Positions 10,791 through 32,000 of a stretch of DNA of 32,000 bases are shown here, in pieces (position 1 is the first letter of the stretch; every line of letters starts with the position of its first letter). Both the position numbers and the translations under genes were made by a program. Origin of the DNA: Pyrodictium abyssi. GTDB taxonomy: Archaea > Thermoproteota > Thermoprotei_A > Sulfolobales > Pyrodictiaceae. Location of the stretch: NCBI RefSeq assembly GCF_036323395.1, contig NZ_AP028907.1, positions 90,001-122,000 on the forward strand, read 5' to 3'. The notes beneath the pieces are model-generated. The model was not told the DNA's origin. It did not search any database and worked only from the letters and a program-made list of their open reading frames with translations.

Positions 10791-11861
10791 CTAGAATACC
10801 TGTTCTACCAGCTTGTAGTAGAGCTCTGCTATCAGCACACCGGTGCCCGCCGCGCCTCGTAGCGTGTTATGGCCTAGCACCATGTACCTCAGCAGGGGCT
10901 CGCCCTCGAATGGCAGTGCAGCCCTGCCCACGACGACGCTCATGCCGCGGCCCGTCTTGCGGTCGAGGCGCGGCTGTGGCCGGTTGGGTTCGCGGCGCAC
11001 TACTACCGGCTTCTCCGGGGCTGTGGGGAGCTGTAGCTCCTGGGGCGTGCTCCTCCACGTGTCCCAGGTTTCGAGTACCTCCTCTATGCTACCGGGCGTC
11101 TTGGAGAGCCTGGCTACGACGCTCTCTAGGTGGCCGTCTAGGACGGGTACCCTAGTGGTGGTGGCTACTACGCGGAAGTCTGCGTACTTCACCTCGCCGT
11201 CCTCGAGCCTGCCGAGTATTTTGCGGCTCTCGCGTACAACCTTCTCCTCCTCGCCCTTTATGAAGGGCAGAATGTTGTCCGTAATAGCGTAGCCTGGTAC
11301 GCCGCTGAACCCTGCGCCGCTTATCGCCTGCATGCTGGTCATGTAGACCTCCTCTAGCCCGTACCGGTCCATTATCGGCTTGAGGCTTAGTGTCAGCACT
11401 GCTGTGGTGCAGTTGGGCACCTTCATTATTGCGCCTCTCCAGCCCCGGCGCTTGCGCTGCAGCTCTATGAGCCGTATGTGCTCCCAGTTAGCCTCGGGGT
11501 TCAATAGGGGCACGTCGGGCTCCATGCGGAACACGTTAGCGTTCGATACCACTATCTTGCCCATTCTCGCTAGCTCTAGCTCTATCTCGCCCGCTACTTC
11601 CTTGGGGAGCGCCACGAAGACTAGGTCTACGTCACGGAGAGCCTCCGCCTTAGTAGGCCTTATTTCGAGCCCGGCTGCCTCCTCGGGGAATGGCTCGTCT
11701 ATGTACCACTCGACCGTTTCCCCGTAGCGCTTGCCGACGCGTCTCTCGCTGGCAGTGACCGCTTCTAGCCGGAACCAGGGGTGCCTGGTGAGCAGGTGGA
11801 CGAACCTCTGCCCGACGAGGCCTGTGGCTCCGAGTACTGCTGCCTTCAGCTTGTCTGCCAC
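10791..11861 (-). CDS. asd: aspartate-semialdehyde dehydrogenase
   Basis: AAVLGATGLVGQRF Rossmann motif, active-site VPNCTTAVL, and MQAISGAGF. The GTG start overlaps the aspartate kinase 3' end by 16 nt. The neighbouring ask and hom argue against the malonyl-CoA reductase paralogue. Confidence 0.9.
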   Translation of the reverse strand: MADKLKAAVLGATGLVGQRFVHLLTRHPWFRLEAVTASERRVGKRYGETVEWYIDEPFPEEAAGLEIRPTKAEALRDVDLVFVALPKEVAGEIELELARMGKIVVSNANVFRMEPDVPLLNPEANWEHIRLIELQRKRRGWRGAIMKVPNCTTAVLTLSLKPIMDRYGLEEVYMTSMQAISGAGFSGVPGYAITDNILPFIKGEEEKVVRESRKILGRLEDGEVKYADFRVVATTTRVPVLDGHLESVVARLSKTPGSIEEVLETWDTWRSTPQELQLPTAPEKPVVVRREPNRPQPRLDRKTGRGMSVVVGRAALPFEGEPLLRYMVLGHNTLRGAAGTGVLIAELYYKLVEQVF

Positions 11862-17936: not shown

Positions 17937-19139
17937 CTACTCTCCGAGCCTCTGGAGGAGCCTAGTAGTCAGCATTGCGACCCTAACCTTGCCGGTGCCG
18001 CGTGCCAGTAGTAGGCCGTGCTGGAGCACCGTGTAGCACTTTATACACGGCGTGACCACCTCGCTTACGCCTTGCCTCATTATCCTCTCAGCTCTCCAGC
18101 GGTAGACACGGCTACGCGTCTCGACGAAGGGCTTCTCGCGGAGATAGTTGACGCCTCCTCCGCCGCCACAACAGAACGTGAGAGGCGGCCTATCCTTCAT
18201 CAGCCTAGAGCCGGACAGCCTCGTGACCACTGGGCAGGCATAGCGGTAGCCGAAGCGGCAGAACCCGCAGCTCGTGAAGAGCACAGAACCCGTATCCCCG
18301 CTAATGCTCTCCAGTAGGCGGCGTGGTGCACGCCGATCCACAATGGTGAACACGTTTACGAACTCCACGCCGCCTAGCCTAGTGAGCCCGTACTTCTCGG
18401 CCATGTGGACAAGCTTCACGTCGGCGCCGCACGCCGAGGTTATCACGGTTTTTGCACCAAGCCTCTTAGCCTCCTCGACTACCCTCTCGAGCATAGCGGC
18501 GCCTATATCCGGTCTCGCCGCGTCAACCGCAACATTGCCGCCCAGGTCCAGGGCTGCGGGCGAGACGGTGACCTCGACGCCTATACTACGGAGTAGCTGG
18601 AGTGTCTCACTGAGCCTATCCGGGTACAGTGTCGTCTCAAACGGAGATGGCACGTATAGTGCTTCGCCCGGCGCGCCTGGCTCCACGCCAGCCTTGCGAG
18701 CTGTCTCCTCGAGGACCCAGCGCGGCTCTCTCGGGTCCAATGTGAAGCTGTGGCCAGAGCGTGCGCCGTTCACCGCCACCTGCTCTAGGCTCTTGGGCGC
18801 CTTGCCCTCTAGGCTCAACTTCATTTTGGCTGCGTGTACTAGCCTCCACACCTCTATACCGTAGGGGCACAGAGCTGTACACGCGCCACACATACTGCAC
18901 GTATAGAGGGTGTACATGTCGTCCTCCGTGACCCTGTCGTTGAGCAGCACCTTTGCTGCCGCTTTTAGGCGGCGTGGCGGTGATAGCTGGGGATCCCGCG
19001 TAGCGCGGTACGAGACACAGCCTGCGAGGCATATTAGGCACTGGCTACAGGCTGCTAGCGCTTCACGTGCTATCTCCTCGGCCTCCGCTATCATGTCTTT
19101 TACGCCGCTGCGCTCGACCCTCATCATCTTTAACTCCAT
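17937..19139 (-). CDS. HdrD/GlpC-like iron-sulfur oxidoreductase with two ferredoxin-type 4Fe-4S motifs and CCG domains
   Basis: CSQCLICLAGC and CSMCGACTALCP cluster motifs are present, along with the CCG-domain signatures FCCGGGGG and TPCIKC (plus SCGFC). The track ORF runs to 19208 but crosses the AT-rich divergent promoter, so the start is probably the Met at 19139 (MELKMM...), 19127 or 19124. Confidence 0.8.
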   Translation of the reverse strand: MELKMMRVERSGVKDMIAEAEEIAREALAACSQCLICLAGCVSYRATRDPQLSPPRRLKAAAKVLLNDRVTEDDMYTLYTCSMCGACTALCPYGIEVWRLVHAAKMKLSLEGKAPKSLEQVAVNGARSGHSFTLDPREPRWVLEETARKAGVEPGAPGEALYVPSPFETTLYPDRLSETLQLLRSIGVEVTVSPAALDLGGNVAVDAARPDIGAAMLERVVEEAKRLGAKTVITSACGADVKLVHMAEKYGLTRLGGVEFVNVFTIVDRRAPRRLLESISGDTGSVLFTSCGFCRFGYRYACPVVTRLSGSRLMKDRPPLTFCCGGGGGVNYLREKPFVETRSRVYRWRAERIMRQGVSEVVTPCIKCYTVLQHGLLLARGTGKVRVAMLTTRLLQRLGE

Positions 19140-19217
19140 GTTAATAGCCCCTATGCAGAATTCAGAGCTAAAAAGCCAATCTATAGGGTGTATATCGCAA
19201 GTTTCCAAACTAACACC

Positions 19218-19223
19218 TATAAA
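19218..19223 (+). promoter_or_regulatory. TATAAA box upstream of the PDO-like gene
   Basis: TATAAA lies about 40-45 nt upstream of ATG 19263, inside a ~120-nt AT-rich divergent intergenic region. Confidence 0.35.
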
Positions 19224-19262
19224 GCTGTTAATAGTTTCGCTGGGCGCGGGGGACCAAAACCG

Positions 19263-19904
19263 ATGGTTATAGATGAGGCTGCACTACGTGCTGCTATAAC
19301 CGATGCCCTCCTCCGGTCAGCAGGGCTACCAACGCTAGCCGACGTTGAGAAAATGCTGTCCAAGGCCGAGAAGAGCACAACCGTAACCATAGTAGTCGAC
19401 GGCTCCAAGTACGGCAAGGCCGGGGCCGATCTAGTGGAGAAGCTCGTAGGTAAGTACGAGTCTGTAGAGGTAAAGGTGTCGGAGAAGACTAGCTGGCCCT
19501 CCGACCTACCTCCGCCCCTCATAGTGGTCGGAGGGGGTCTCGGCGGCCGTCTACTGTTCTACGGTGCTCCTGCAGACGTACTGTCGCCGATGTTCATGCT
19601 GGCTGTCGCGGCGTCGTGTGGAGCGTGGAGGCCTAGCAGCTGTAGCGGGCTGGAGGGGGCCCGTGGGAGGGCTAGGCTATACGTGGTGCCGGGTCTACCA
19701 TGCGCCCGCGCGATATACAATTCGCTGCATGTACTCTATTGCAGTAGGGCTGCGGAGCTGGAGATAGTTAACGTGGAGGGCTACTACGCGATGGGTAAGG
19801 AGCTCCCGGTGAAGCAGGTGCCAACGTTCGTATCGCCTAGCGGTAAGAGGCATACTGCTACGCCTAGGAGCCCTGCAGAAGTCCTCAGCTGGTGGAGCAG
19901 CTAG
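19263..19904 (+). CDS. degenerate two-unit thioredoxin-fold protein (PDO-like), monothiol
   Basis: LLFYGAPADVLSPMF resembles the PDO F.G.P.G.E motif. In the second unit, YVVPGLPCARAIY sits where CPYC is expected and VKQVPTFV where the cis-Pro loop is expected. The first unit has no Cys at the CXXC position. Start moved to ATG 19263, downstream of the TATA box; the track start is 19188. Confidence 0.5.
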   Translation: MVIDEAALRAAITDALLRSAGLPTLADVEKMLSKAEKSTTVTIVVDGSKYGKAGADLVEKLVGKYESVEVKVSEKTSWPSDLPPPLIVVGGGLGGRLLFYGAPADVLSPMFMLAVAASCGAWRPSSCSGLEGARGRARLYVVPGLPCARAIYNSLHVLYCSRAAELEIVNVEGYYAMGKELPVKQVPTFVSPSGKRHTATPRSPAEVLSWWSS

Positions 19905-20022
19905 CCCAATCACAGTGATTGTTTCCTGGACCTAGTTTCGTACTATACGCGACAATACAGATAAACGTTGGCAACGAGGACCCATCGTGAATGGATGAGT
20001 ATTCCCGCGGGGGTGCCGTGCT

Positions 20023-20268
20023 ATGGCGAGGGCAGAAGAGCTGGACCTCACGAAGCTGACCGCGCTCTGCGGCGACTTCAGTGTGCACATACTTGCTAAG
20101 CTGGAGGGCCTAGAGAAGGGCGATAGGCTTACCGTCAAGATAAAGAAGGAGGACCGTGAACTCCTAGAAGCAGCTATATCTGCTATAAGGGATGCTGGCG
20201 TAGCAGAGCCCATCGAGGAGGGTGAGGAGGGCGAAGCCTTCTACATAGTTCTCGAGAAGCGGAGGTGA
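20023..20268 (+). CDS. TusA/SirA-like small protein (candidate sulfur-carrier fold)
   Basis: 81 aa, the same length as E. coli TusA. It shows the pattern LD...L...C(G)D......KL..L..GD.L.V.......  ...YIVLEKR. The conserved Cys is retained, but CP is replaced by CG. Confidence 0.5.
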   Translation: MARAEELDLTKLTALCGDFSVHILAKLEGLEKGDRLTVKIKKEDRELLEAAISAIRDAGVAEPIEEGEEGEAFYIVLEKRR

Positions 20269-20278
20269 ATACGACTAG

Positions 20279-20899
20279 ATGTTTTCAGGCACCGAGCTAG
20301 TCTCTTTCACAGTAAGTTACGGTTTCGCCATATTCCTTGTCGCCGCGCTAGCACCGCTAGTCTACGTTGGGCTAGGAGGCACCCCTGGGTACCGGAACTC
20401 CCTTAGGACGACAATGAGGCTACTACGCAGCACACTCGCAGCCCCCATGCTGGAGCACCCTATGCCCCTAGTAGCCGCTATCGCATCACTATTCCATGCC
20501 AGCATAGTCATAGCGTTAGCCGCGCATCTAGTCCTGGCAGGTGCCCAGTGGAATGGAGGACTTTATCAGCTCTCGTCCACAGCCGTAGCGGCTATACTCT
20601 ACGCGAAGAGGACTGCCGCAGTGATTATCCTGTTCACCGCCCCAGTACTGCTTAGTGTCAGGCTCTACACCGGCGCTAGGTTTAGGCTTTTCAACTGGAA
20701 GCACGTCCTTCTCACTATAGGCGATCTGCTGCTACTAGTACTAGCGGCGACAGGGCTCATGATGCGAGGCAATACGGGCCTTCTCATAGCCCATGTGGCC
20801 ACCGGGCTTATCGCTGTAGCCTACTTCATCGTACTGCTCGCTGTGGGGCACCGTCTATACTCGCGGGCTCTAGCCGAGAACCGTGTACTCGAGGTGTAG
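20279..20899 (+). CDS. NarI/HdrE/DsrM-like integral membrane protein (candidate dihaem cytochrome b)
   Basis: About five TM helices and no Cys. His73/His83 are 10 residues apart in one helix and His172/His191 are 19 apart in the last helix. This approximates the NarI haem-ligand spacing (10 and 18) as I remember it. Confidence 0.5.
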   Translation: MFSGTELVSFTVSYGFAIFLVAALAPLVYVGLGGTPGYRNSLRTTMRLLRSTLAAPMLEHPMPLVAAIASLFHASIVIALAAHLVLAGAQWNGGLYQLSSTAVAAILYAKRTAAVIILFTAPVLLSVRLYTGARFRLFNWKHVLLTIGDLLLLVLAATGLMMRGNTGLLIAHVATGLIAVAYFIVLLAVGHRLYSRALAENRVLEV

Positions 20900-20906
20900 C
20901 GTTACA

Positions 20907-21476
20907 ATGCCCTCAAGGGCTCTGACGGCTGGTATACTCGTAGCCCTGCTGTCTGTAGCGATTCTACTAGCTCTAGACCGTATATACGCGAGCAAAGCCG
21001 CTACCACTGTGCCAGCAGCCTCAACCACCGCTACCAGCAGCCAGCAAGAGATCCATGGGAGAATAGTAGTTATACTAGGCACTGAGAGCTGCCCCCACTG
21101 CCGCGCTATGGAGGCATTCTTCCGGGAGGAGTTGCCGGGCCGGGCGTACTTCTGCGAGATAACGGAGAAGGGCTCTAGCTGTGAGGCTGCGTTCGGCCTC
21201 CTAGTCAGCAAGAGGGTTACAATGGCTGTACCCACTATGGTCGTCTGTGACACGGATAGGCGCGTCGTAGAGGGAATAATCATAGGAGAGTTCCGGGACG
21301 CTAAGTGGTGGAGAAACGTCCTCGAAAACGGTCTACCAGGAGGCAATGAGACCAGTATACCCGTGTACATGGTTGACCGGGTAACCGGTGCTATGGAGGT
21401 CGAGCCCAGGGCCATGGAGAAGCTCTATAGCGTGCTATGCAACGCTACTCTAGCTGATGCCAAGCCTCTAGGGTGA
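20907..21476 (+). CDS. membrane-anchored extracytoplasmic thioredoxin/glutaredoxin-like protein, CPHC active site
   Basis: An N-terminal TM anchor (ALTAGILVALLSVAILLAL) is followed by a Thr/Ser/Ala-rich linker, then VVILGTESCPHCRAMEAFF and a cis-Pro-like AVPTMVV. Start taken as ATG 20907; the track's GTG at 20883 overlaps the upstream gene. Confidence 0.75.
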   Translation: MPSRALTAGILVALLSVAILLALDRIYASKAATTVPAASTTATSSQQEIHGRIVVILGTESCPHCRAMEAFFREELPGRAYFCEITEKGSSCEAAFGLLVSKRVTMAVPTMVVCDTDRRVVEGIIIGEFRDAKWWRNVLENGLPGGNETSIPVYMVDRVTGAMEVEPRAMEKLYSVLCNATLADAKPLG

Positions 21477-22150
21477 CGGTGGGCCGTATGGGCCTACTCG
21501 CAGAGCTTTTCACACTAGCAGCGCTCGATAGCATAAACCCATGCACATTCTACATCTATACAGTCCTCCTGCTCTCGGTCTCCATAAGAGAGCAGAGCAG
21601 CCGTGCAGTACTGGCTACCGGGTTAGCTTTTGTCGCTGGCGTCTACCTGGGCTACACGCTGCTTGGACTCGGAATCGCCGGGGCTGCCGCTGCGCTTCCA
21701 GTATGGCTTCTATCATTGGCAGCTGGGGGCTACGGCGCCTACACTATAGTTGCCGGGCTCTACGAGCTACGGGGGAGAAAGCGGCCCGGACCCCAGAGGC
21801 CTGGGGGCAAGCTGGCCCCAAGAGCTCTACGGGTCACGAGTAGGCTAGGCGCCTTCGGGCTAGGCCTGCTACTCTCGTTCACACTATTGCCGTGCAGTGG
21901 CGGCCCGCTAGTAGCCTTCGTGATGCTAGCTAGCGCCGAGGGCTACGGTGGGCTGCTCGTAGCTCCTCTTCTGCTGCTCTACAATCTAGTCTTCGTCTCA
22001 CCGCTGATAGCTATAGGCCTCGCAGCTGCTGCTGCCTACCGTGTAGAGCGGGTACAACAGGCGATAGCCCGTGCAGGCCCCTATGCCTCCATATTCGCAG
22101 GCCTTGCACTGATAGCCATTGCTGTCTATATCTATGTGCGGCCTGGCTAG
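21473..22150 (+). CDS. ccdA: CcdA/DsbD-family thiol:disulfide transmembrane electron transporter
   Basis: Six hydrophobic helices carry the two family-defining Cys motifs: LDSINPCTFY in TM1 and LLPCSGGPL in TM4. The GTG start overlaps the upstream stop (GTGA); ATG at 21488 is an alternative. Confidence 0.8.
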   Translation: MTVGRMGLLAELFTLAALDSINPCTFYIYTVLLLSVSIREQSSRAVLATGLAFVAGVYLGYTLLGLGIAGAAAALPVWLLSLAAGGYGAYTIVAGLYELRGRKRPGPQRPGGKLAPRALRVTSRLGAFGLGLLLSFTLLPCSGGPLVAFVMLASAEGYGGLLVAPLLLLYNLVFVSPLIAIGLAAAAAYRVERVQQAIARAGPYASIFAGLALIAIAVYIYVRPG

Positions 22151-23703: not shown

Positions 23704-24192
23704 ATGGTGCATAACGCTATGGACAGGTCCACCCACGTTGTGTTCGCTACAGGGTTTTCGACTGCTATGCTGTGGGGCCTCAATGCACCCCCGGGCGCAT
23801 TGTTCATAGTAATCCCGGTGGCCATCACGGCCTCCCTTATACCGGATATAGACCTCCACAAGGCACACCGGTCTCTACTACACAACATACCGGTTGCTGT
23901 TTCCCTAACACTACTAGTGTATGCAGCTGCTCTCACTAGTCTTCCCCAGGTACTCGCCGAGCTTGTGGCCCTAGGCTTCCTACTAGGCTATACTAGCCAC
24001 ATCCTCCTAGACATGTTCACGGTACGAGGAGTTGCCCTCCTCTACCCCCTCAGCCGTAGATTCTACAGACTAGCCAGGCTACGTAGCAACGACCCCCTAG
24101 CAAACAAGCTTCTACAGGCACTATCAGCCGCACTAGCAGCATATAGCGCAGCAGCAATGATGGGGCTCGTACCGGCTAAGCCAACACCGTAA
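23704..24192 (+). CDS. YdjM/DUF457-family membrane-bound metal-dependent hydrolase
   Basis: STHVVF....., LIPDIDLHKAHRSLLHN and TSHILLDMFT..G..LLYP are the characteristic His/Asp motifs embedded in TM helices. Confidence 0.7.
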   Translation: MVHNAMDRSTHVVFATGFSTAMLWGLNAPPGALFIVIPVAITASLIPDIDLHKAHRSLLHNIPVAVSLTLLVYAAALTSLPQVLAELVALGFLLGYTSHILLDMFTVRGVALLYPLSRRFYRLARLRSNDPLANKLLQALSAALAAYSAAAMMGLVPAKPTP

Positions 24193-24338: not shown

Positions 24339-24343
24339 AAAAA
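24339..24343 (-). terminator. oligo-T (T5) tract about 20 nt after the isp2 stop
   Basis: The plus strand reads GGCTAAAAACATG, so the minus strand reads CATGTTTTTAGCC. A second run, CTTTTC (comp. 24315-24320), follows. The region is convergent with the YdjM-like gene. Confidence 0.45.
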
Positions 24344-24363
24344 CATGTTGAGGTATAGCGGGG

Positions 24364-25788
24364 TTACTGTAGACGCTCGCCTATGTAGGCTGCTATGTGC
24401 CTTACCTGTGTCTTTAGCCCGTATAGCTGCGCGCCGCCAGCTATGGAGTGCATGCAGACCGGACACGCCGTGACTACTATATCGGCGCCGCTCTTCTTGA
24501 TGTCGTCTATCTTCCTCTTCACGGCTATTGTCCAGTGCTCTGCTGTCTTCTGTATGAATTCTAGCTCCTTCTCTCCCGCTACGAGGTCCTTGCTGGAGAC
24601 GCCTAGTAGCTTGCCCATCTGCTCTAGCATCTCCATGTTCATACAGCCTATGCCTCCGCCGCCACCGCAGCAGTAGCTCTCAGCGCCGTGGTGCGGTAGC
24701 TTGCGGAAGCCCTTGCTAGCCGCGCTGAGTACGAAGTTGGGCTCCTCAGTTACGCCGCCGCGGCGTGCGAGCTGGCAGGGGTCGTGCCAGGTTACCTTGT
24801 CGTCGGTCTGGTTTAGCTTGAGCTTGCCCTCCTTTATCAGCTTCTCGAAGAGCTCCACTATGTGTAGTACACGGTAGCTCGGCCGGCGGCCTAGCACCTT
24901 GGGCATCTGGAACCTTAGCCACGGGTAGACGAACCCGCCGTCAAGGAGCACTACGTTCTTGGGCTCATACTTTGATATGTCTGCGTTAAGCATCTTTAGC
25001 ATCTCTCTGGCCTGCTTGAATAGGCCTATGACCGCTGCTATTGGCGGGCGGAATGCGAACGGCTTGCTCGGCAGCGTCCAGTCTACCCCGGCGCGGTCTA
25101 GCACCCTCATTGCGCCTATGACCGCGTCTGGGTAGAACATCGCGTCAGCCATGTTCACTAGGAGGAAGTACTCGGCGCCCTTCTTGTCGAATGGCAGCGG
25201 CTTGCCCAGCGCCTGCTCAGCCTTCTTCATTACCTCGTTCCATATGTACATGAAGCTGGGTATCTTGAGGAAGAGCTTCTCGCGCTCTATTACGTCGAAT
25301 ACAGCTATCAGCGTAGGCGCACGGCCAGACTTGGTGGCTATGCTGGCTAGTATACTCTTTATTATCGCGCCGCTATCGATACCGAAGGGGCATGATACGT
25401 AGCATGCACCGCAGTTGGTACAGCGGTAGACCGCCTCGACGATTGTATCTAGGTCTTTCTCGCTCTTGGGCTTCTTCGCGTTGAGCAGCGGGCCGAGCAG
25501 CTTACCTAATATAGTCGCCTCCTTTCTGTAGATGTTGCGTGCTAGCTCAGCCTTCTCTACCGGGCCGTACTTCTCGGATACATAGTAGTAGGGGCACGAT
25601 GGGGCGCACGCTGCGCATCCTACACAATTCTCGAGGAAGTGTAGCTTGACTGAGTCTAGTGTCGCTAAAGCCTCCTGTATAGTCTTCTCAACCCTGTCAG
25701 CCTGAAAGCCCTCCCACGATATGTTCCTCTTTATCTCCTCTAGCAGCTTCCTAACGTCGGGGCCTGGAGCCGCTTCCGCCACCAACAC
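24364..25788 (-). CDS. isp2: Isp2: HdrD/DsrK-like FeS protein with CCG domains (hydrogenase-associated)
   Basis: CVGCAACAPSCP and CTNCGACYVSCP 4Fe-4S motifs are present, with CCG signatures HDPCQLARRGG, YCCGGGGGIGC and TACPVCMHS. It lies immediately downstream of the cytochrome b gene, as in hynS-isp1-isp2-hynL operons. GTG start. Confidence 0.9.
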   Translation of the reverse strand: MLVAEAAPGPDVRKLLEEIKRNISWEGFQADRVEKTIQEALATLDSVKLHFLENCVGCAACAPSCPYYYVSEKYGPVEKAELARNIYRKEATILGKLLGPLLNAKKPKSEKDLDTIVEAVYRCTNCGACYVSCPFGIDSGAIIKSILASIATKSGRAPTLIAVFDVIEREKLFLKIPSFMYIWNEVMKKAEQALGKPLPFDKKGAEYFLLVNMADAMFYPDAVIGAMRVLDRAGVDWTLPSKPFAFRPPIAAVIGLFKQAREMLKMLNADISKYEPKNVVLLDGGFVYPWLRFQMPKVLGRRPSYRVLHIVELFEKLIKEGKLKLNQTDDKVTWHDPCQLARRGGVTEEPNFVLSAASKGFRKLPHHGAESYCCGGGGGIGCMNMEMLEQMGKLLGVSSKDLVAGEKELEFIQKTAEHWTIAVKRKIDDIKKSGADIVVTACPVCMHSIAGGAQLYGLKTQVRHIAAYIGERLQ

Positions 25789-25825
25789 TATTCACCCCAT
25801 GAACATGTGTCACGAGCATGAGGGG

Positions 25826-26638
25826 TTAGACGAGGCCCTTCTGTACACGGAGGTCGTACCATTCGTGTAGCTTTCCGTACCAGTAGCCGAACACGAAGTG
25901 CCAGTACTTGCTGAAGGGTATCAGCATTAGCAGTATCTCGGCACCGAGTATGTGGAAGCCCAGCACTGTTCTGTAGGTGCCTACGTCCATTGTGACTGTT
26001 CCTGTAGAGTGCCTGGCTGCTGCGTAGCCTGTTAGCAGTATGAACATTAGCAGGCCTAGCGAGAAGTAGTCGCTCCACCTTACGTGGCGGAGCCCGTGGG
26101 CCTGCTCCATCACCTTAGTGCCTATCTTGAACGCTACACCGAGTATAGCTAGTATGGCTAGCACGTCACCGTTGAGTATCACTGTTAGCGGGCCCCAGAT
26201 GCTGTTGACGAACTTAACCTCTATTGGCGAGGTTATGGTTAGGGTTGAGGTTGTCACGCTCAGCGGTATCCATAGCCCAGTCTCTGCTACTAGCTTGTAT
26301 GGTGCGAACCAGTAGGCGAAGAACGCTACATGGTGTGCTAGCAGGAATATTAGGGGTAGCACGCCTACGATGTGTAGTGCTACTAGGCCTGCTAGGAAGT
26401 CGTGTGGCTTCGCCTTCATGCTGAATATTATGGGGTCTACGAATGTTCTTACAAGCCCTATTATCCATGCTCCTACTCCGCGGTTGCGCGGCTCAGCCTT
26501 CACTACGCGGCGCCAGAGAAGCACCATCTTGGCTAGCCTGTAGGCGGTGCCGAAGGCGAATACTGTTATCGCTACCCAGAAGAAGTAGTATACTGCGAAG
26601 CTGTAAACATCCGCAGTACTACCGCCCAAGTACCCCAT
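25826..26638 (-). CDS. isp1: Isp1: NarI/HdrE/DsrM-like dihaem cytochrome b membrane anchor
   Basis: A multi-TM protein containing LHIVGVLPLIFLLAHH and GFHILGAEILLMLIPFSKYWH. The two His in the second motif are 18 residues apart, and the PFSK..H motif is typical of the nitrate-reductase-gamma fold. Confidence 0.85.
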   Translation of the reverse strand: MGYLGGSTADVYSFAVYYFFWVAITVFAFGTAYRLAKMVLLWRRVVKAEPRNRGVGAWIIGLVRTFVDPIIFSMKAKPHDFLAGLVALHIVGVLPLIFLLAHHVAFFAYWFAPYKLVAETGLWIPLSVTTSTLTITSPIEVKFVNSIWGPLTVILNGDVLAILAILGVAFKIGTKVMEQAHGLRHVRWSDYFSLGLLMFILLTGYAAARHSTGTVTMDVGTYRTVLGFHILGAEILLMLIPFSKYWHFVFGYWYGKLHEWYDLRVQKGLV

Positions 26639-26767
26639 TAACCTGCCACCTCACCCTTCCATCCCATACAGTAGTACACGGTACGCTCCACAACTGTTAT
26701 GGACACAGCCCTAGGGCGCTAGGCTGGGGCAAAAAGCCCGGATACTACGCGGCTCTTGCAAGCCTCT

Positions 26768-28198
26768 TTAGCCGCGTCCCTGCTCCTTCTTGGCCCTCTC
26801 AGCCTTCTTCTCGACCATCTTAGATACTCCATAGGCTACGGCTGCACCCGCTACAGCGGCTACAGCGGCACTAGCCGCAGTAGAGGCTGTACTCGGCGTT
26901 GTGGGCGCCTGTAGCGGCTTGTAGAACGGCTCGAACGCGTCAGTGAAGCCCGGCATGGTACAGCCTATACACACGCCGCCGGTCCTCGTGGGGCCGCCTA
27001 CGCCCTCGACCCAGCCGACCTTGTTCCAGGGACAGTTGCTGATCGGGCCCTTACAGCCGACTGCGAAGAGGCACTTGTAGTCAGAGTCACCAGGCTCCTT
27101 ACGGAGGTCGCCGGCAGCGTAGCTCCCTGCCCTCGGGCACTGCTCGTGCACTGTTGGACCGAAGATGTACTTTGGCCTCCAGTACTGGTCGAGCTCTGGC
27201 AGCGGTAGGATGCCCTTAGCCCACAGTATCAGGTTGGCTATGACGCGGAGCTGGCCGTTACCGTTCGCAGGACAGCCGGGCACGGCGATGGCCGGCCGGC
27301 AGTCTGGCCTAATCTCGCCAGGCTTTAGGGAGCACTTACCGTAGACGAAGTTGCGGAACGGCTTCGCCTCCTCGAGCAGGTCTACTAGGCCCTTGTTGCC
27401 CCTAACCGGGTCGGGGAAGAAGCCTACCGCGCCCGTTGGGCTAGCGCTCCATCCCTTACCAGCCCATGTCTCGAATAGGTCGTAACCCATCTTCTTCACG
27501 AACTCTACCTCTACTACCTTGTTGGCGGGGATGCCGCCGTAGCACGCACAGTTGCCGACAGCAATCACTGCTACCGCGCGCGGTAGAAGGCGCCTCATCC
27601 ACTCCGTACACGATATAGGCTTACCGTTCTCGTCGCCTATGTAGCAGAAGTAGTCGCTATAGAGTGGGCCCCCAGCCTTCTCGTCTATGGGGAAACTGCC
27701 CTCAAGCACGAGTATGAATGGGTCGAGCTTGCCCTGCTCTGCGAGCTTTAGCACGTCTATAGGGCTTGTGAGGAGTAGGCCGGGGTTGTAGCCTAGGTCA
27801 AGGAAGGTCTTTAGGGTCTTCTTGAGCGGGTCATCGTCGGGGAGCTTCTCCACGAGGGCGGCTACTTCCTCGGGGCTCATCTCGGCGAGCTTCTTAGCGT
27901 ACTCGGGTGTCTCCTCGCCCCAGCTGAGCATCACCGTCTCATGGAAGAGTAGCTTTACTGTACCCGGGCCTGCCACGTGGCTGTAGCCGCCTAGAACCTC
28001 GACGAGGTCGGGCTTGGTAGCCTGGATTATCGCTGTCGTGTTGCCAGCGCAGTCCTGCGCCTCGAACCATATTATGTTTATACCGCCCGACTTGACCTCG
28101 GCTATGGCCTTCTTTATCAGCTCGTCCCAGTTGAGGCTGGCGAAGAATGCTGCAGTCCCCGTGAGCTTTAGAAAGTCCCTACGGGAGAGCTTGGCCAT
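26768..28198 (-). CDS. hynS: [NiFe]-hydrogenase small subunit, Tat-exported, with C-terminal TM anchor
   Basis: A twin-arginine signal (SRRDFLKL) is present. Collinear small-subunit motifs are IIWFEAQDCAGNT, LEGSFP, AVIAVGNCACYGGIPA, VPGCPANG, VHEQCPR, CLFAVGCKGPISNCP and VCIGCTMPGF.D. The C-terminus is a Thr/Ser/Ala linker plus a hydrophobic helix. Confidence 0.9.
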   Translation of the reverse strand: MAKLSRRDFLKLTGTAAFFASLNWDELIKKAIAEVKSGGINIIWFEAQDCAGNTTAIIQATKPDLVEVLGGYSHVAGPGTVKLLFHETVMLSWGEETPEYAKKLAEMSPEEVAALVEKLPDDDPLKKTLKTFLDLGYNPGLLLTSPIDVLKLAEQGKLDPFILVLEGSFPIDEKAGGPLYSDYFCYIGDENGKPISCTEWMRRLLPRAVAVIAVGNCACYGGIPANKVVEVEFVKKMGYDLFETWAGKGWSASPTGAVGFFPDPVRGNKGLVDLLEEAKPFRNFVYGKCSLKPGEIRPDCRPAIAVPGCPANGNGQLRVIANLILWAKGILPLPELDQYWRPKYIFGPTVHEQCPRAGSYAAGDLRKEPGDSDYKCLFAVGCKGPISNCPWNKVGWVEGVGGPTRTGGVCIGCTMPGFTDAFEPFYKPLQAPTTPSTASTAASAAVAAVAGAAVAYGVSKMVEKKAERAKKEQGRG

Positions 28199-28258
28199 GA
28201 AGCGGTTCCCCCATTTTCTTTTTCCCCGCTACCGAAGATACTCCGTACGATGAATCTT

Positions 28259-28271
28259 AATAAATATATTT
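28259..28271 (-). promoter_or_regulatory. AT-rich TATA-like box upstream of hynS
   Basis: The minus strand reads AAATATATTTATT, centred about 67 nt upstream of ATG 28198. It is one of the few AT-rich islands in an otherwise GC-rich window. Confidence 0.35.
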
Positions 28272-28592
28272 CGAGGGCAGGAAACCCGGTAGTCTTTAAC
28301 GCCCAAAAATGCGAGATAATTATAGAGTCATACAGATTCGCGGACTACCAGCCCAGCATAAAGGACGCACCGGCATCGCATAGCAGTGCGCTCTGCATCT
28401 GTCTAAAGCCGTCCTCCTTGCCAGGGTTCTTCGGTAAACCCCGCCAGCCTCACAGCCCCAGGGAGCCCCGGGGGCTCAGACCCCGTAGGCGCTAAACTCC
28501 ACATCCAGGCTACAAATGCTCGGAGCCCCCTGCCCATAAACTATTACCCGTGTGCAGGAGTAACGGCTCTAGCACGCTACGAGGAGAGCTTA

Positions 28593-28639: not shown

Positions 28640-29032
28640 TTGACCACCCCTGAGGAGAGGAGACGTGCACTGATAGAGGGGCTCCGGGGCCTCATCCGGC
28701 TAGGCAGCCAGGCGGCAGAAGCCGTGGACGAGGTGCGCCAGGAGATACTGGGAGCCCTTGAGGAGGCTCTAGGTATCGAGCTTACTCCGGAGAAGCGGGT
28801 GCTCCGCAGCCTCTACAGCTTTAACCCGCCACGGCAACCTAGCCTTGAGGAGCTACGCGCGCTTATAGCGCGGAGTATGGGGCTGGAGGATGGCTCACAG
28901 CTCGAGGAGTACCTCCGGGGGCTCGGAGGAGCCCAGGAAGCTGGTAGCAGTGGTACCGAACCCGCTCGTGAAGGGGGGCAGCGGCCTCCTAGAGCTAGTC
29001 CTGGAGCTGATAGGGAGGGAGCCGGAGGCTAG
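28640..29032 (+). CDS. hypothetical helical protein (first gene of the hydrogenase-maturation-side operon)
   Basis: TTG start preceded by GGGAGGA. The first ~95 aa are plausibly helical (EERRRALIEGLRGLIRLGSQAAEAVDEVRQEILGALEEALG...). The last ~35 aa are Gly/Ala/Pro/Arg-rich low-complexity sequence that overlaps the next ORF, so the true 3' end is uncertain. Confidence 0.4.
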   Translation: MTTPEERRRALIEGLRGLIRLGSQAAEAVDEVRQEILGALEEALGIELTPEKRVLRSLYSFNPPRQPSLEELRALIARSMGLEDGSQLEEYLRGLGGAQEAGSSGTEPAREGGQRPPRASPGADREGAGG

Positions 29033-29399
29033 GATAGGTAGATGCATAGTGATAGACGGGTCCATGGACGCTCTATCACTGGTCGATGAGGCCTCGAGCA
29101 GGGGCGTCGAGGACATTGTCATCCTCGGCGCGATACACACAGACGGCCGCGGCAGGGGCATGTACACCCGGGTAGTAGAGCCCCGCGACGCCAGGGCTAT
29201 GAGCCCACAGCAGCTCACCAAGGAGCTTTGGATGAACCTGACAGGCAGCCTCGGGCTAGACGACTACGCGGCTGCGCTGAGCCTCCTCTGGAGCCGCGCC
29301 TTTATCCTAGCCGAGTGCGACCCCGGTGACTCGGAGGACCCGGAGGAGGCGTGCAAGAGGCTTGCAAGAGAGTGGATCCAGCGCGAGTGCGGGGCGTAG
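28890..29399 (+). CDS. degenerate hydrogenase maturation endopeptidase paralogue (HyaD/HybD/HycI-like fold, N-terminal acidic metal ligand missing)
   Basis: KLVAVVPNPLVKGGSGLL aligns with the GIGNPL.GDDG.G motif but has GG in place of DD. The later positions are retained (CIVIDGS, AIHTDG). Its size matches the domain and it lies directly upstream of a canonical paralogue. Confidence 0.5.
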   Translation: MAHSSRSTSGGSEEPRKLVAVVPNPLVKGGSGLLELVLELIGREPEARIGRCIVIDGSMDALSLVDEASSRGVEDIVILGAIHTDGRGRGMYTRVVEPRDARAMSPQQLTKELWMNLTGSLGLDDYAAALSLLWSRAFILAECDPGDSEDPEEACKRLAREWIQRECGA

Positions 29400-29400
29400 G

Positions 29401-29946
29401 GTGCTCGTACTGGGTATAGGCAATACACTCCACGGCGACGACGGTATTGGCTACTGCCTGGCGCGCGGCATAGAAGCCTGCGGCGGCGTGGAGGGCGCCG
29501 ACGTAGCTGCTATCCAGGAGCTAAACCCTGGCCACATAACCGTCCTGGACGGCTACGACGTAGTAGTGTTCATAGACGCCTTCATATCCGACGACATGCC
29601 AGAGCACGCGCGGGTCGCGGTCCTCGAGCTCGACCCTTCCCGTCTCAGCAAGGAAGAGATAGCCGCGCTCGTGCAGGAGATGGATCCCCATAGCCTTAAC
29701 CCTATTAGGCTGATGGTGCTATCCTACGCTGCACAGCTCTTCCGGGGCAATGCATACCTCGTCGGCGTAAGGCCCTACAGGATAGAGTTCCTGGAGGGGC
29801 TCAGCACCGAGATAAAAGAGGCCATACCGAAGGCGCTAGAGGAGCTAAGACGTGTATTCGCCGGGCTCGGCGCCGCCATGAAGGCCAGCAGCGACTGTGT
29901 CATGAGCTGGATTGAGAATCACTGCAGTAAACCACTCCTCGACTAG
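29401..29946 (+). CDS. [NiFe]-hydrogenase maturation endopeptidase (HyaD/HybD/HoxM family)
   Basis: VLVLGIGNTLHGDDGIGYCLA, VVFIDAF and MDPHSLNP carry the three metal-ligand positions. The start is placed at the in-frame GTG at 29401, directly after the upstream stop. The track ORF begins at 29326 with an Arg-rich stretch that overlaps the previous gene. Confidence 0.85.
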   Translation: MLVLGIGNTLHGDDGIGYCLARGIEACGGVEGADVAAIQELNPGHITVLDGYDVVVFIDAFISDDMPEHARVAVLELDPSRLSKEEIAALVQEMDPHSLNPIRLMVLSYAAQLFRGNAYLVGVRPYRIEFLEGLSTEIKEAIPKALEELRRVFAGLGAAMKASSDCVMSWIENHCSKPLLD

Positions 29947-30025: not shown

Positions 30026-30988
30026 TTATTGTAGGCCGAGCCTCTGGCGCGCTCTGCGGCACGCTTCAACCATTTCCTCATCTATTATCGGTATGCCTTT
30101 CTCGTAGAACCACTCGCCGAAGTCGTGGTCGCTGGTGAGTATATGGTTCTTCACCCACTCGGACAGGAAGTGCAGGATACTCAGTGTTAGCTGCTTCTCG
30201 CCAGCCTCGTACTGCTCCATGAACTCTGCTACCTTCTTTACGAAGCCCTCGTGCTGGCGGCGGTGGCTCTCTGCGCGTGGGTACCCGTACTTGTCGAAGA
30301 GCTTCTCCTCGCTGCGGAAGTGGAACTTGGTGTAGTCTACCAGGCTGTTGAGCGTCTCATCCACTACTTTCTTTTCTTCGCCGGCTAGTATGCTTATGTA
30401 GAGGTTGTTTAGCACCGTGACCAGGTAGCGGTGCTGGTTGTCGACGCCCCGGATGTAGACGCTGAACTCGGGCCCCCAGCGGTACATGTAGCGCCTCAGC
30501 TTGGCCACGACGACGCGTACCTTGCCAGTCCACTCGTCAAGAGCATGCAGTGCGTCGAGCCCATAGCTTACGCCTAGGCCCGGCTCCTCGAGGCGTACAG
30601 CAGTGATTATTACACCATACGTTAGTATCCATGCGTTAAGCCTCTCCCCCTCTATTATGAGGAGCCGGGGCCCCATTTCGGGCTCGAGCCTGGATGCTAC
30701 AAGGTGTTTCACTTGGCCCTGGAGCCCGTGTAGCCGCGTCTCGAACTCCTCCTTGGACTCGGCTGCTTCGAGTATGTAGAGAACGAGGCTTGGATCGTCA
30801 AGCAGTCTACTATTCCACTCTATGCTCTCGGCGACGTAGGAGAAGGGCGGCACCATTGTCTTCGGTATGGGTTTTCTCTCCTCAGGTATCTCGTCCACGC
30901 CTACCTCTACTATGTACCGTACGTCTGGGTCGCGTGTATGCCACCAGTATCGGAGCTTGCGTAGAAACCCGGGTGTCAAGGAGACCAC
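30026..30988 (-). CDS. two-domain protein: unknown N-terminal domain (~170 aa) fused to a C-terminal hemerythrin-like metal-binding domain
   Basis: The C-terminal part (about 30101-30475) has the bacteriohemerythrin ligand pattern: VDNQHRYL, YTKFHFRSEEKLF, YPRAESHRRQHEGF, WVKNHILTSDHDF. The N-terminal half has no motif I recognise. GTG start. Confidence 0.8.
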   Translation of the reverse strand: MVSLTPGFLRKLRYWWHTRDPDVRYIVEVGVDEIPEERKPIPKTMVPPFSYVAESIEWNSRLLDDPSLVLYILEAAESKEEFETRLHGLQGQVKHLVASRLEPEMGPRLLIIEGERLNAWILTYGVIITAVRLEEPGLGVSYGLDALHALDEWTGKVRVVVAKLRRYMYRWGPEFSVYIRGVDNQHRYLVTVLNNLYISILAGEEKKVVDETLNSLVDYTKFHFRSEEKLFDKYGYPRAESHRRQHEGFVKKVAEFMEQYEAGEKQLTLSILHFLSEWVKNHILTSDHDFGEWFYEKGIPIIDEEMVEACRRARQRLGLQ

Positions 30989-31184: not shown

Positions 31185-31592
31185 ATGGAAAATAGCTACT
31201 GTAGCAGGAAGTCTGACGAGATAATACACTTCGTGACATGGCGTATGGACAATATGCCGGACTACAAGGACTGGGTTATGTCGATGCTACGAGCCTGGGG
31301 CGCGATGCTCAACGAGGCAAACAACCAGCGCTCTCTCCTCCCCTTCGCCTCGCTGGCGTTAACCCACCTCGGCGTCGGCCTCACCGCCACCTATGTTATC
31401 GAGGGGGCTAGCCCGGAGGAGGCCCTCAAGAAGGCTAAGGAGGAGCTATGTGCCGTGTATAAGGCTAGCCTCGAGCTGCTCGATAAAGCGTTCCAGCAGG
31501 GCAAGATAATGGAGATAATAGAGGAGTCCATGAGGGAGGCAGAGGAAGCTGTTCAGAGCGAGGGCGTGGAACAGGCCAGAGAAGGCTCCTAG
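31185..31592 (+). CDS. hypothetical protein
   Basis: A 135-aa ORF with reasonable codon use and a helical, acidic C-terminus. No recognisable motifs. Alternative starts are at MDNMPDY or MPDY. Confidence 0.45.
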   Translation: MENSYCSRKSDEIIHFVTWRMDNMPDYKDWVMSMLRAWGAMLNEANNQRSLLPFASLALTHLGVGLTATYVIEGASPEEALKKAKEELCAVYKASLELLDKAFQQGKIMEIIEESMREAEEAVQSEGVEQAREGS

Positions 31593-31633: not shown

Positions 31634-32000
31634 CTATTCTTCGAGCCTAGCCGCTGCTACCAGGAGCTGGCCCGCAGCTATCCCGCCGTCGCCTGGCGGC
31701 AGGCGGCGGGGTACTTGTGCCTCTAGGCCATGGCCTCTCAGTGCCTCCCGGATCCCCTGGACTATGGGGGTGTTGACTGCCGCGCCTCCGGCGATGTATA
31801 CTGGGCCGTCTAGCCCTCTTGCTGCGCGGGCTGCTGCTTCTCCTAGGGCTCTGCCTAGGCCGCGCTGGACCGTGGCTGCTATGTCCCTTGTGGGGAGCCT
31901 GTCGAGGTTCTCGATGACCCAGTGTAGGAGCCCCGGGGTGTCAACCACGAGGCGGCCGTCTAGGCTGAGAAGCCTCGGAGTGTAGCCATGGTCGCGGCCT
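31634..32000 (-). CDS. hypF: [NiFe]-hydrogenase maturation carbamoyltransferase HypF, C-terminal fragment (continues past the right edge)
   Basis: The C-terminus ...VYIAGGAAVNTPIVQGIREAL...VPRRLPPGDGGIAAGQ matches the Kae1-like end of HypF (SGGV.QN ... P.NDGGI.LGQ). By hand translation the frame stays open upstream of the track's GTG through to position 32000 (...ARDHGYTPRLLSLDGRLVVDTPG). Confidence 0.8.
   Translation of the reverse strand, partial: GRDHGYTPRLLSLDGRLVVDTPGLLHWVIENLDRLPTRDIAATVQRGLGRALGEAAARAARGLDGPVYIAGGAAVNTPIVQGIREALRGHGLEAQVPRRLPPGDGGIAAGQLLVAAARLEE

Follow-up and report, generated by a model that had tools for sequence, protein, structure and literature searches.

The 32,000-nucleotide stretch of the Pyrodictium abyssi chromosome analysed here (contig NZ_AP028907.1, positions 90,001 to 122,000; called the window below) raises the question of what a [NiFe]-hydrogenase small-subunit gene is doing when two genes for electron-transfer partners follow it and a gene for the catalytic large subunit does not. 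To our knowledge, the operons of the bacterial group 1e enzymes always include this large-subunit gene, hynL. An earlier note on this DNA, made from its letters alone, offered two answers for the hynS-isp1-isp2 genes of the window: either the catalytic subunit is encoded elsewhere, or the three gene products work as an electron-transfer module that needs no large subunit. Our analysis supports the first of these. The window very probably holds one half of a single membrane-bound respiratory uptake hydrogenase of [NiFe] group 1g (the ‘Crenarchaeota Isp-type’ enzymes), whose hynL gene is intact but distant. This half consists of hynS-isp1-isp2 and a divergent set of accessory genes that includes a large-subunit endopeptidase gene and hypF.

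The three structural genes are back-to-back minus-strand open reading frames (ORFs) that together span positions 24364–28198. The first, hynS (26768–28198, identified by its ORF and Pfam matches), encodes a small subunit of 476 amino acids that is identical to BES80555.1. It is followed by isp1 (25826–26638), which encodes a membrane subunit of 270 amino acids (identical to BES80554.1/PABY_01210), and then by isp2 (24364–25788), whose product of 474 amino acids is a cytoplasmic HdrD/DsrK-like iron-sulfur protein by both Pfam and NCBIfam. Exactly 20 nucleotides past the TAA stop codon of isp2, on the same strand, lies a T5 tract (24339–24343), at which transcription of hynS-isp1-isp2 is likely to stop in the manner of archaeal oligo-T terminators. 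The next gene is convergent with isp2 and encodes a YdjM-family protein (23704–24192, plus strand; Pfam 1.5e-18). A tblastn search of the whole window with three crenarchaeal HynL proteins (E ≤ 10) returned noise only, revealing neither a hynL gene nor a remnant of one. Gene order, terminator-like tract, convergent neighbour and missing large subunit are therefore all as the earlier note had described them. The best match in that search (E 3.7e-4) falls on an ORF called pepA (28890–29399, plus strand). The similarity is weak but reciprocal and involves HynL residues ~400–500, and we judged it to be a chance match or at any rate not interpretable.

An intact large-subunit gene is nonetheless present in P. 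abyssi, outside the window. The same 2,224,219-bp record that contains BES80555.1 also contains BES80839.1 (P0245 in our protein set), a ‘nickel-dependent hydrogenase large subunit’ of 628 amino acids. This protein carries the N-terminal motif RICGVCGASH, the C-terminal motif DPCLACAAH and a 24-residue tail past the last histidine; the two motifs are those of a group 1g large subunit, and an orthologue matches the Pfam family NiFeSe_Hases. CarB from the window (identical to BES80531.1) belongs to the same chromosome record as HynS and Isp1, and accession numbers rise with window coordinate at a rate of 24 numbers per ~22 kb. The large subunit is 284 protein accessions away from HynS, which by this accession order would therefore place hynL ~284 genes, or roughly 250 kb, from hynS.

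The same separation can be seen in the sister species. In Pyrodictium delaneyi Su06, for which a complete assembly exists, hynS occupies 397.8–399.3 kb on the minus strand and hynL 645.3–647.2 kb on the plus strand, 246 kb apart. The two genes are likewise 246 kb apart on one contig of P. delaneyi Hulk (hynS 60.1–61.5 kb, minus strand; hynL 307.5–309.4 kb, plus strand), and 221 kb apart on one contig of Pyrodictium occultum (hynS 372.6–374.0 kb, minus strand; hynL 595.2–597.1 kb, plus strand). Thus, P. abyssi, P. delaneyi and P. occultum, which are all the Pyrodictium species sequenced, share the same split. The hynS side of each is syntenic with the window and includes hypDCEF, small ORFs, the protease gene, hynS-isp1-isp2, the convergent YdjM gene and a gene for an SDR protein. 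Around hynL, P. delaneyi and P. occultum likewise agree in gene order: a saccharopine-dehydrogenase-like gene is followed by hynL, an ORF of 188–196 amino acids, a convergent NikR-like gene and an ABC transporter. The metagenome-assembled genome (MAG) L087, whose HynS is 81% identical to that of P. abyssi, is split as well, with rearranged flanking genes. A search of genome contigs with a HynL alignment gave 80 loci, none of them from the three Pyrodictium isolate genomes, which were reached via cluster members instead. Four more genomes (L007–L010) carry a lone hynL of the same clade.

These assemblies also bear on the idea that the split is an artefact of assembly or of the window and that hynL really lies behind isp2. 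Nothing beyond the general chance of misassembly speaks for it. P. abyssi, P. delaneyi Su06, Hulk and P. occultum were assembled independently and all four have the same junction between isp2 and the YdjM gene, L087 is split despite its rearranged flanks, and both Hulk and P. occultum hold the two loci on a single contig at the distances given above. We therefore assign this explanation a negligible probability.

The earlier note had reasoned that a dedicated hynL at a fixed nearby position in relatives would turn its unusual case into an ordinary one. In essence this applies, in that the relatives do have a dedicated hynL at a fixed, conserved locus, but that locus is distant rather than nearby. 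The fixed locus is therefore what would be expected of an ordinary rearranged operon. To call such a split unusual for an enzyme whose large subunit is exported as a passenger on the twin-arginine translocation (Tat) signal of another protein was fair, although the split is implicit in published locus tags. These are Pyrde_0647 versus Pyrde_0393–0395 for P. delaneyi (PMC8105010) and Pdsh_09845 versus Pdsh_08510 for strain Hulk (PMC5556600), and both papers give them without comment on the unlinked large subunit.

The small subunit encoded in the window has the parts of a working, exported hydrogenase subunit. It opens with MAKLSRRDFLK, which contains the twin-arginine motif SRRDFLK, ends in a hydrophobic membrane anchor and matches the Pfam families Oxidored_q6 (3e-12) and NiFe_hyd_SSU_C (6e-24). 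Alignment to small-subunit structures in the PDB covers the motifs of the proximal, medial and distal iron-sulfur clusters, all of which are kept in 20 crenarchaeal relatives. The Tat signal, anchor and three cluster regions named in the earlier note are accordingly present, and the first and last of these are features of a group 1g small subunit. Among relatives, the C-terminal region of HynS sorts by membrane partner, and the protein from the window is of the Isp type. The genome paper on strain Hulk describes a small subunit without iron-sulfur domains (PMC5556600), a description that is contradicted by the Pfam match and by the conservation of the cysteines.

Two features of HynS are shared more widely. 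At the second cysteine-ligand position of the proximal cluster, where standard enzymes have the CxxC arrangement, the protein has Asn53 (window 28040–28042, within the motif QDCAGN). This position is Asp in the O2-insensitive group 1h enzyme 5aa5 and alternates between Asn and Asp across the crenarchaeal relatives, so that the substitution is family-wide rather than specific to this locus. The second feature is an insertion of ~49 residues (EETPEYAKKLAEMSPEE...GYNPGLLL; HynS residues ~95–143, window ~27770–27916) that is common to the Pyrodictium clade and to a clade of Pyrodictiaceae enzymes with a cytochrome b subunit. It is missing from the small subunits of Thermofilaceae, Ignicoccus, Pyrolobus and Sulfolobales, and those of Pyrobaculum and Thermoproteus have a shorter, unrelated insertion at the same site.

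Both electron-transfer genes characteristic of group 1g loci lie directly downstream of hynS. Isp1 has about five hydrophobic segments, in or near which are five histidines (H89, H103, H210, H229 and H247) that are kept in 98–100% of 41 homologues. The protein has zero Pfam matches, and its NCBIfam matches to TmcC (2.5e-9; 37 bits against a cutoff of 240) and HmcE are weak and below threshold. On the basis of this sequence pattern, we regard Isp1 as a putative di-haem b-type cytochrome. Isp2 matches Fer4_8 and CCG in Pfam, and its best NCBIfam match is DsrK (6.6e-50), followed by HmcF (6e-38), both under the equivalog cutoffs. It possesses the two ferredoxin motifs and the CCG-domain cysteines of HdrD/DsrK-type proteins: the two CxxCxxCxxxC motifs (C55/58/61/65 and C123/126/129/133) are invariant in 38 homologues, and C338, C373/374 and C442/445 of the CCG domain are kept in 95–100% of them.

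Evidence that the distant HynL belongs with this HynS comes from phylogeny. Neighbour-joining trees were built for HynS (39 sequences) and HynL (60 sequences), and in both the Pyrodictium clade is sister to the same cytochrome-b-type clade, with bootstrap values of 76 for HynS and 89 for HynL. The congruence of the two trees indicates that the subunits have co-diverged, and the distant hynL is therefore the cognate partner. In a provisional placement, both subunits group with the Isp-type enzymes of Crenarchaeota, among them loci of Acidianus and of Sulfolobales. The P. delaneyi orthologue has been classed as group 1g by the scheme of Greening et al. (PMC8105010).

This congruence counts against the second answer of the earlier note, in which HynS-Isp1-Isp2 is a stand-alone electron-transfer module and the distant HynL either pairs with another protein or is irrelevant. 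That proposal can draw on the position of hynL outside the transcription unit, which ends at the T5 tract, and on the resemblance of Isp1 and Isp2 to DsrMK, HmcEF and TmcCB, modules that work without hydrogenases. However, another partner for HynL is not apparent. There is no other small-subunit gene within 10 kb of the orphan hynL of P. delaneyi, near the orphan hynL of the four MAGs (0.4–10 kb per side examined) or, according to its gene table, near hynL of P. occultum, and among the best 120 matches neither P. delaneyi nor P. occultum contributes a further close paralogue of HynS. The hynS and isp genes were also not found around the lone hynL genes of L007–L010 over the same 0.4–10 kb per side, and tblastn detected no remnants of hynS, isp or cytochrome b genes around orphan hynL genes. 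In addition, an endopeptidase gene and hypF still lie beside hynS in the window, as does hypDCEF in the syntenic relatives, a close relative (L088) keeps all four structural genes contiguous, and HynS and HynL rise together in the P. delaneyi proteome (PMC8105010). The congruent trees, the retained endopeptidase and hypF genes and the joint rise of the two subunits lead us to set the large-subunit-independent module aside as very unlikely.

Divergent from hynS is pepB (29326–29946, plus strand; start codon uncertain), a hydrogenase maturation endopeptidase gene of the HybD/HycI family whose product scores 73.1 bits against the NCBIfam model TIGR00072 (cutoff 47.45), and whose homologues adjoin hynS in the majority of the crenarchaeal loci that we surveyed. 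The window edge cuts hypF so that its 3′ end (31634–32000, minus strand) is included, and its translation matches the C terminus of HypF from MAG L052; at this position, the syntenic P. delaneyi locus has hypD-hypC-hypE-hypF. The earlier note had counted two endopeptidase genes and hypF here. The hypF end and one TIGR00072 protease are confirmed, but the second ORF, pepA, matches no Pfam or NCBIfam family, and BLASTP comparison of its product with pepB and with orf188 (the 188-amino-acid ORF behind hynL) yields nothing. Homologues of pepA stand beside hynS in 15 loci, making it a conserved hydrogenase-associated ORF. A profile comparison with the endopeptidase family by hhalign gave a probability of 46% and an E value of 2e-4 over 123 columns, and the GDDG, Asp and His positions that serve as metal ligands in that family are replaced. 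At best, pepA may have arisen as a paralogue of the endopeptidase gene that has degenerated and lost the ligands. Judging from P. delaneyi, its reading frame probably starts farther downstream than annotated here, close to 29030.

Relatives with other layouts indicate how the split could have arisen. The gene order hynS-isp1-isp2-hynL is contiguous in Pyrolobus fumarii and in two related MAGs. In L088, whose HynS is 73% identical to that of P. abyssi, hypDCEF, the accessory genes and hynS-isp1-isp2-hynL form one block with hynL directly behind isp2. The hynL of L088, on a short read-assembly contig, is called as two ORFs (10910–11769) with a frame change near 11212, so that the gene may be a true pseudogene or may have been assembled wrongly. 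By sequence, the closest outgroup comprises three Pyrodictiaceae MAGs (L005, L006 and L052) with the order hynS-cytochrome b-hynL. These loci share their upstream accessory genes with one Pyrodictium half-locus and the downstream block hynL-orf180-nikR-hypA-hypB with the other. Orphan hynL loci keep hynL-orf188-nikR(-hypA-hypB), the same order as in the cytochrome-b-type loci.

In the simplest history, an ancestral hynS-isp1-isp2-hynL-orf188 cluster would have been cut in the spacer between isp2 and hynL, in the common ancestor of Pyrodictium and L087. A single inversion would fit both the opposite strands and the distance of 221–246 kb and may have been the cause. A T5–T6 tract follows isp2 not only in the split loci of P. 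delaneyi and L087 but equally where the operon is contiguous, as in L088, Pyrolobus fumarii, L014 and L018. With such a tract present even where the four genes are contiguous, hynL may have been transcribed separately from its own promoter before the split, in which case a breakpoint between isp2 and hynL would be harmless.

The alternative that the locus is a decaying remnant, left behind after loss of hynL in an organism that uses another hydrogenase, can be weighed at this point. The large subunit is gone from its ancestral position, and L088, the sole close relative with a contiguous hynL, shows the apparent frameshift. That frameshift, however, occurs in one short read-assembly contig and is possibly an assembly error. 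The three window genes are full-length ORFs in which every cluster ligand and haem histidine is kept, and their products are 90–92% identical between P. abyssi and P. delaneyi. Moreover, in P. delaneyi the proteins are detected in the proteome and membrane hydrogenase activity is high (PMC8105010). We therefore consider decay to be extremely unlikely.

A split but functional enzyme agrees with what is published on P. delaneyi, whose group 1g membrane uptake hydrogenase has been named ‘Hca’ (Kashyap & Holden 2021, PMC8105010). The system in the window is its orthologue: HynS is 92% identical to Pyrde_0395, Isp1 and Isp2 are 90% identical, HynL falls in the same 90% cluster, and the flanking genes and the hynL split are the same. 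One difference is that P. delaneyi lacks a hemerythrin-domain gene that P. abyssi and P. occultum carry in the accessory cluster. All four subunits (Pyrde_0647 and Pyrde_0393–0395) were detected in the P. delaneyi proteome, HynL and HynS rose together on ferrihydrite, the former 7-fold and the latter 4-fold, and the membrane hydrogenase activity was 7,960 nmol/min/mg (PMC8105010).

By analogy with models for Acidianus (PMC11018855) and P. delaneyi (PMC8105010), a likely scheme for the P. abyssi enzyme can be drawn. The hynL gene would form its own transcription unit, followed by the 188-amino-acid ORF and a convergent nikR-like gene. HynL would mature in the cytoplasm, where Hyp proteins supply the NiFe(CN)2CO centre and the protease encoded beside hynS cuts off the 24-residue C-terminal tail. 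The mature protein would then dock on HynS and cross the membrane on the HynS Tat signal. Oxidation of H2 by HynL would take place outside the cell, and electrons would pass through the three iron-sulfur clusters of HynS and reach the Isp1 haems, which would hand them on to quinone, to the cytoplasmic, HdrD-like Isp2, or to both.

The departure of this enzyme from the textbook lies in gene layout only, and it is not a new kind of system. The standard layout, a single cluster with isp1 and isp2 flanked by hynS and hynL, is not found here, given that hynL is unlinked. Gene orders across the Thermoproteota that we surveyed include hynS-hynL-isp1-isp2, hynS-isp1-isp2-hynL, hynS-cytochrome b-hynL and the split form; gene order is thus variable, and layout is therefore a weak criterion for membership in group 1g.

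Comparison with individual systems illustrates this point. Pyrolobus fumarii, another member of the Pyrodictiaceae, has the same four proteins in the order hynS-isp1-isp2-hynL, with a divergent endopeptidase gene upstream and a T5 tract behind isp2. Its proteins are 51% (HynS), 58% (Isp1) and 59% (Isp2) identical to those from the window, and its HynL is 59% identical to the reference HynL P0137. It differs in that hynL follows isp2 after a spacer of 104 nucleotides and in that nikR and orf188 are absent downstream of hynL. The group 1g enzymes of Acidianus ambivalens and A. brierleyi have the same subunits, with HynSL predicted to be extracellular, Isp1 in the membrane and Isp2 in the cytoplasm (Leung et al. 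2024, PMC11018855), but in Sulfolobales a single cluster holds all four genes, with the isp pair placed between hynS and hynL, and identity to the P. abyssi proteins is ~45%. The Acidianus group 1g enzyme couples H2 oxidation to sulfur respiration (PMC11018855); the hydrogenase of A. ambivalens was the subject of Laska et al. 2003, as cited in PMC3189178.

The bacterial group 1e enzymes (Thiocapsa roseopersicina Hyn and those of Allochromatium vinosum and Aquifex aeolicus, hydrogenase II) share the order hynS-isp1-isp2(-hynL) and the logic of the module (see also PMC11018855). However, they belong to another phylogenetic subgroup, and among the best 120 matches to HynS and HynL the relatives named by organism are all archaeal. 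Outside the Pyrodictium clade, the closest HynS (~70–73% identity) and HynL (~71%) come from cytochrome-b-type loci, a type represented by Thermoproteus tenax (TTX_0031–0033) as well as by L005, L006 and L052. In these loci, which share the accessory genes and downstream block already described, a Ni_hydr_CYTB-like cytochrome b replaces Isp1 and Isp2, the C terminus of HynS differs accordingly and hynL is contiguous.

Joining the two Pyrodictium loci matters because hynS-isp1-isp2 without hynL could be misread as an orphan or as a non-hydrogenase module. Database names add to the problem: in NCBI and UniRef, many HynS orthologues are labelled ‘hyaluronate lyase’ and many HynL orthologues ‘cytochrome B’. 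These names hide the enzyme, and bringing the two loci together settles which subunits make up the one respiratory uptake hydrogenase that Pyrodictium has. P. abyssi is the source of the classic purified H2:sulfur oxidoreductase complex (Dirmeier et al. 1998, as cited in PMC3189178). The locus further provides a clear natural example showing that a large subunit exported as a Tat ‘hitchhiker’ does not have to share a transcript with the protein that carries it, and it identifies the isp2-hynL spacer as a tolerated operon breakpoint.

The sequences upstream of hynS contain elements that might link the two separated units. An A/T-rich, TATA-like box (AAATATATTTATTAA; 28257–28271, minus strand) is located ~60–70 nucleotides upstream of the hynS ATG and may act as its promoter; it is kept in P. 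delaneyi, P. occultum and L087 with an invariant ATTTAT core. Upstream of this box is a candidate operator, GGGCGTTAAAG (28294–28304, minus strand), which has a single exact match in the window. Exact matches to its consensus GGGYGTTAAWG also occur upstream of hynS in P. delaneyi (L001 9900–9910) and in the Pyrolobus MAG L018 (5988–5998), and upstream of orphan hynL in L007 (271–281) and L010 (9921–9931). Near matches related to CACGGG(YG)TTAAWG are present in other hynL promoters. Sequence recurrence of this kind tentatively suggests a common operator of the two units.

Several points weigh against the proposed picture of one hydrogenase encoded in two separated units. The trees are neighbour-joining only, and the key HynS node is moderately supported (76). 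For P. abyssi itself, the distance and neighbours of hynL are deduced from the order of the accessions and from the loci of two sister species. The single inversion is proposed from strand and distance. The terminator, the promoters and any co-regulation of hynS and hynL in P. abyssi are likewise predictions. In addition, an unbiased 9-mer enrichment test with shuffled hynL promoters as the background gave no significant result (26/200 shuffles), because of which a shared operator role for GGGCGTTAAAG is tentative.

A further reading places the emphasis on regulation. Here, the split is not neutral: with hynL in its own unit beside a NikR-type regulator gene, and hynS-isp1-isp2 kept with the maturation genes, Pyrodictium may control the nickel subunit apart from the electron-transfer module, and the two promoters are perhaps tied together by GGGYGTTAAWG; in its extreme version, the exported HynS-Isp1-Isp2 also works without HynL in certain conditions. 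We consider this reading as a whole to be unlikely.

Conserved features of the two half-loci include several with no assigned family. Behind hynL, in orphan and hynS-cytochrome b-hynL loci alike, there is always an ORF of 180–196 amino acids without a Pfam or NCBIfam family (L085 12060–12626, L089 12107–12697, L052 12121–12663), followed by the convergent NikR-like gene. The Pyrolobus homologue of this ORF adjoins an endopeptidase gene instead. Its product is likely to be a large-subunit-specific accessory protein.

On the hynS side, the divergent accessory cluster starts with an ORF of 130 amino acids (28640–29032, plus strand) that has no convincing family; its homologues occupy the equivalent place in P. 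delaneyi, Pyrolobus, L005, L006 and L052. Between the accessory cluster and hypF lies an ORF of 135 amino acids (31185–31592, plus strand), again with homologues but no Pfam or NCBIfam family, which is 86% identical in P. delaneyi and has homologues in L005, L006, L052 and L064. A profile comparison of orf188 and these two small ORFs with one another gave nothing. Inside the cluster, between pepB and the 135-amino-acid ORF, is the hemerythrin-domain gene noted above (30026–30988, minus strand; 320 amino acids, with a C-terminal HHE domain; Pfam 6e-15). It occupies the same position in P. occultum (L091 5390–6400; L090) and is absent from the P. delaneyi locus L001. Its product may be a sensor of O2, NO or iron tied to maturation or regulation of the hydrogenase.

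The intergenic region between hynS and the accessory genes includes a GC-rich block (~28431–28500) that P. abyssi shares with P. delaneyi, P. occultum and L087. Within it are the invariant sequence GGCGGGGTTTRCCGA and a predicted hairpin with a few compensatory changes, and it may encode a small RNA or have a regulatory function. The block has no Rfam match, and Rfam and tRNA scans of the whole window likewise returned zero matches.

Elsewhere in the window, a second HdrD-like gene (17937–19208) with Fer4_8 and CCG domains is divergent from five small or membrane-protein ORFs (19188–22150), none of which has a convincing Pfam family and one of which carries a thioredoxin-like CPHC motif. This whole block (17937–22150) keeps its gene order in P. 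delaneyi, P. occultum and L087, and may constitute a membrane thiol/disulfide redox module.

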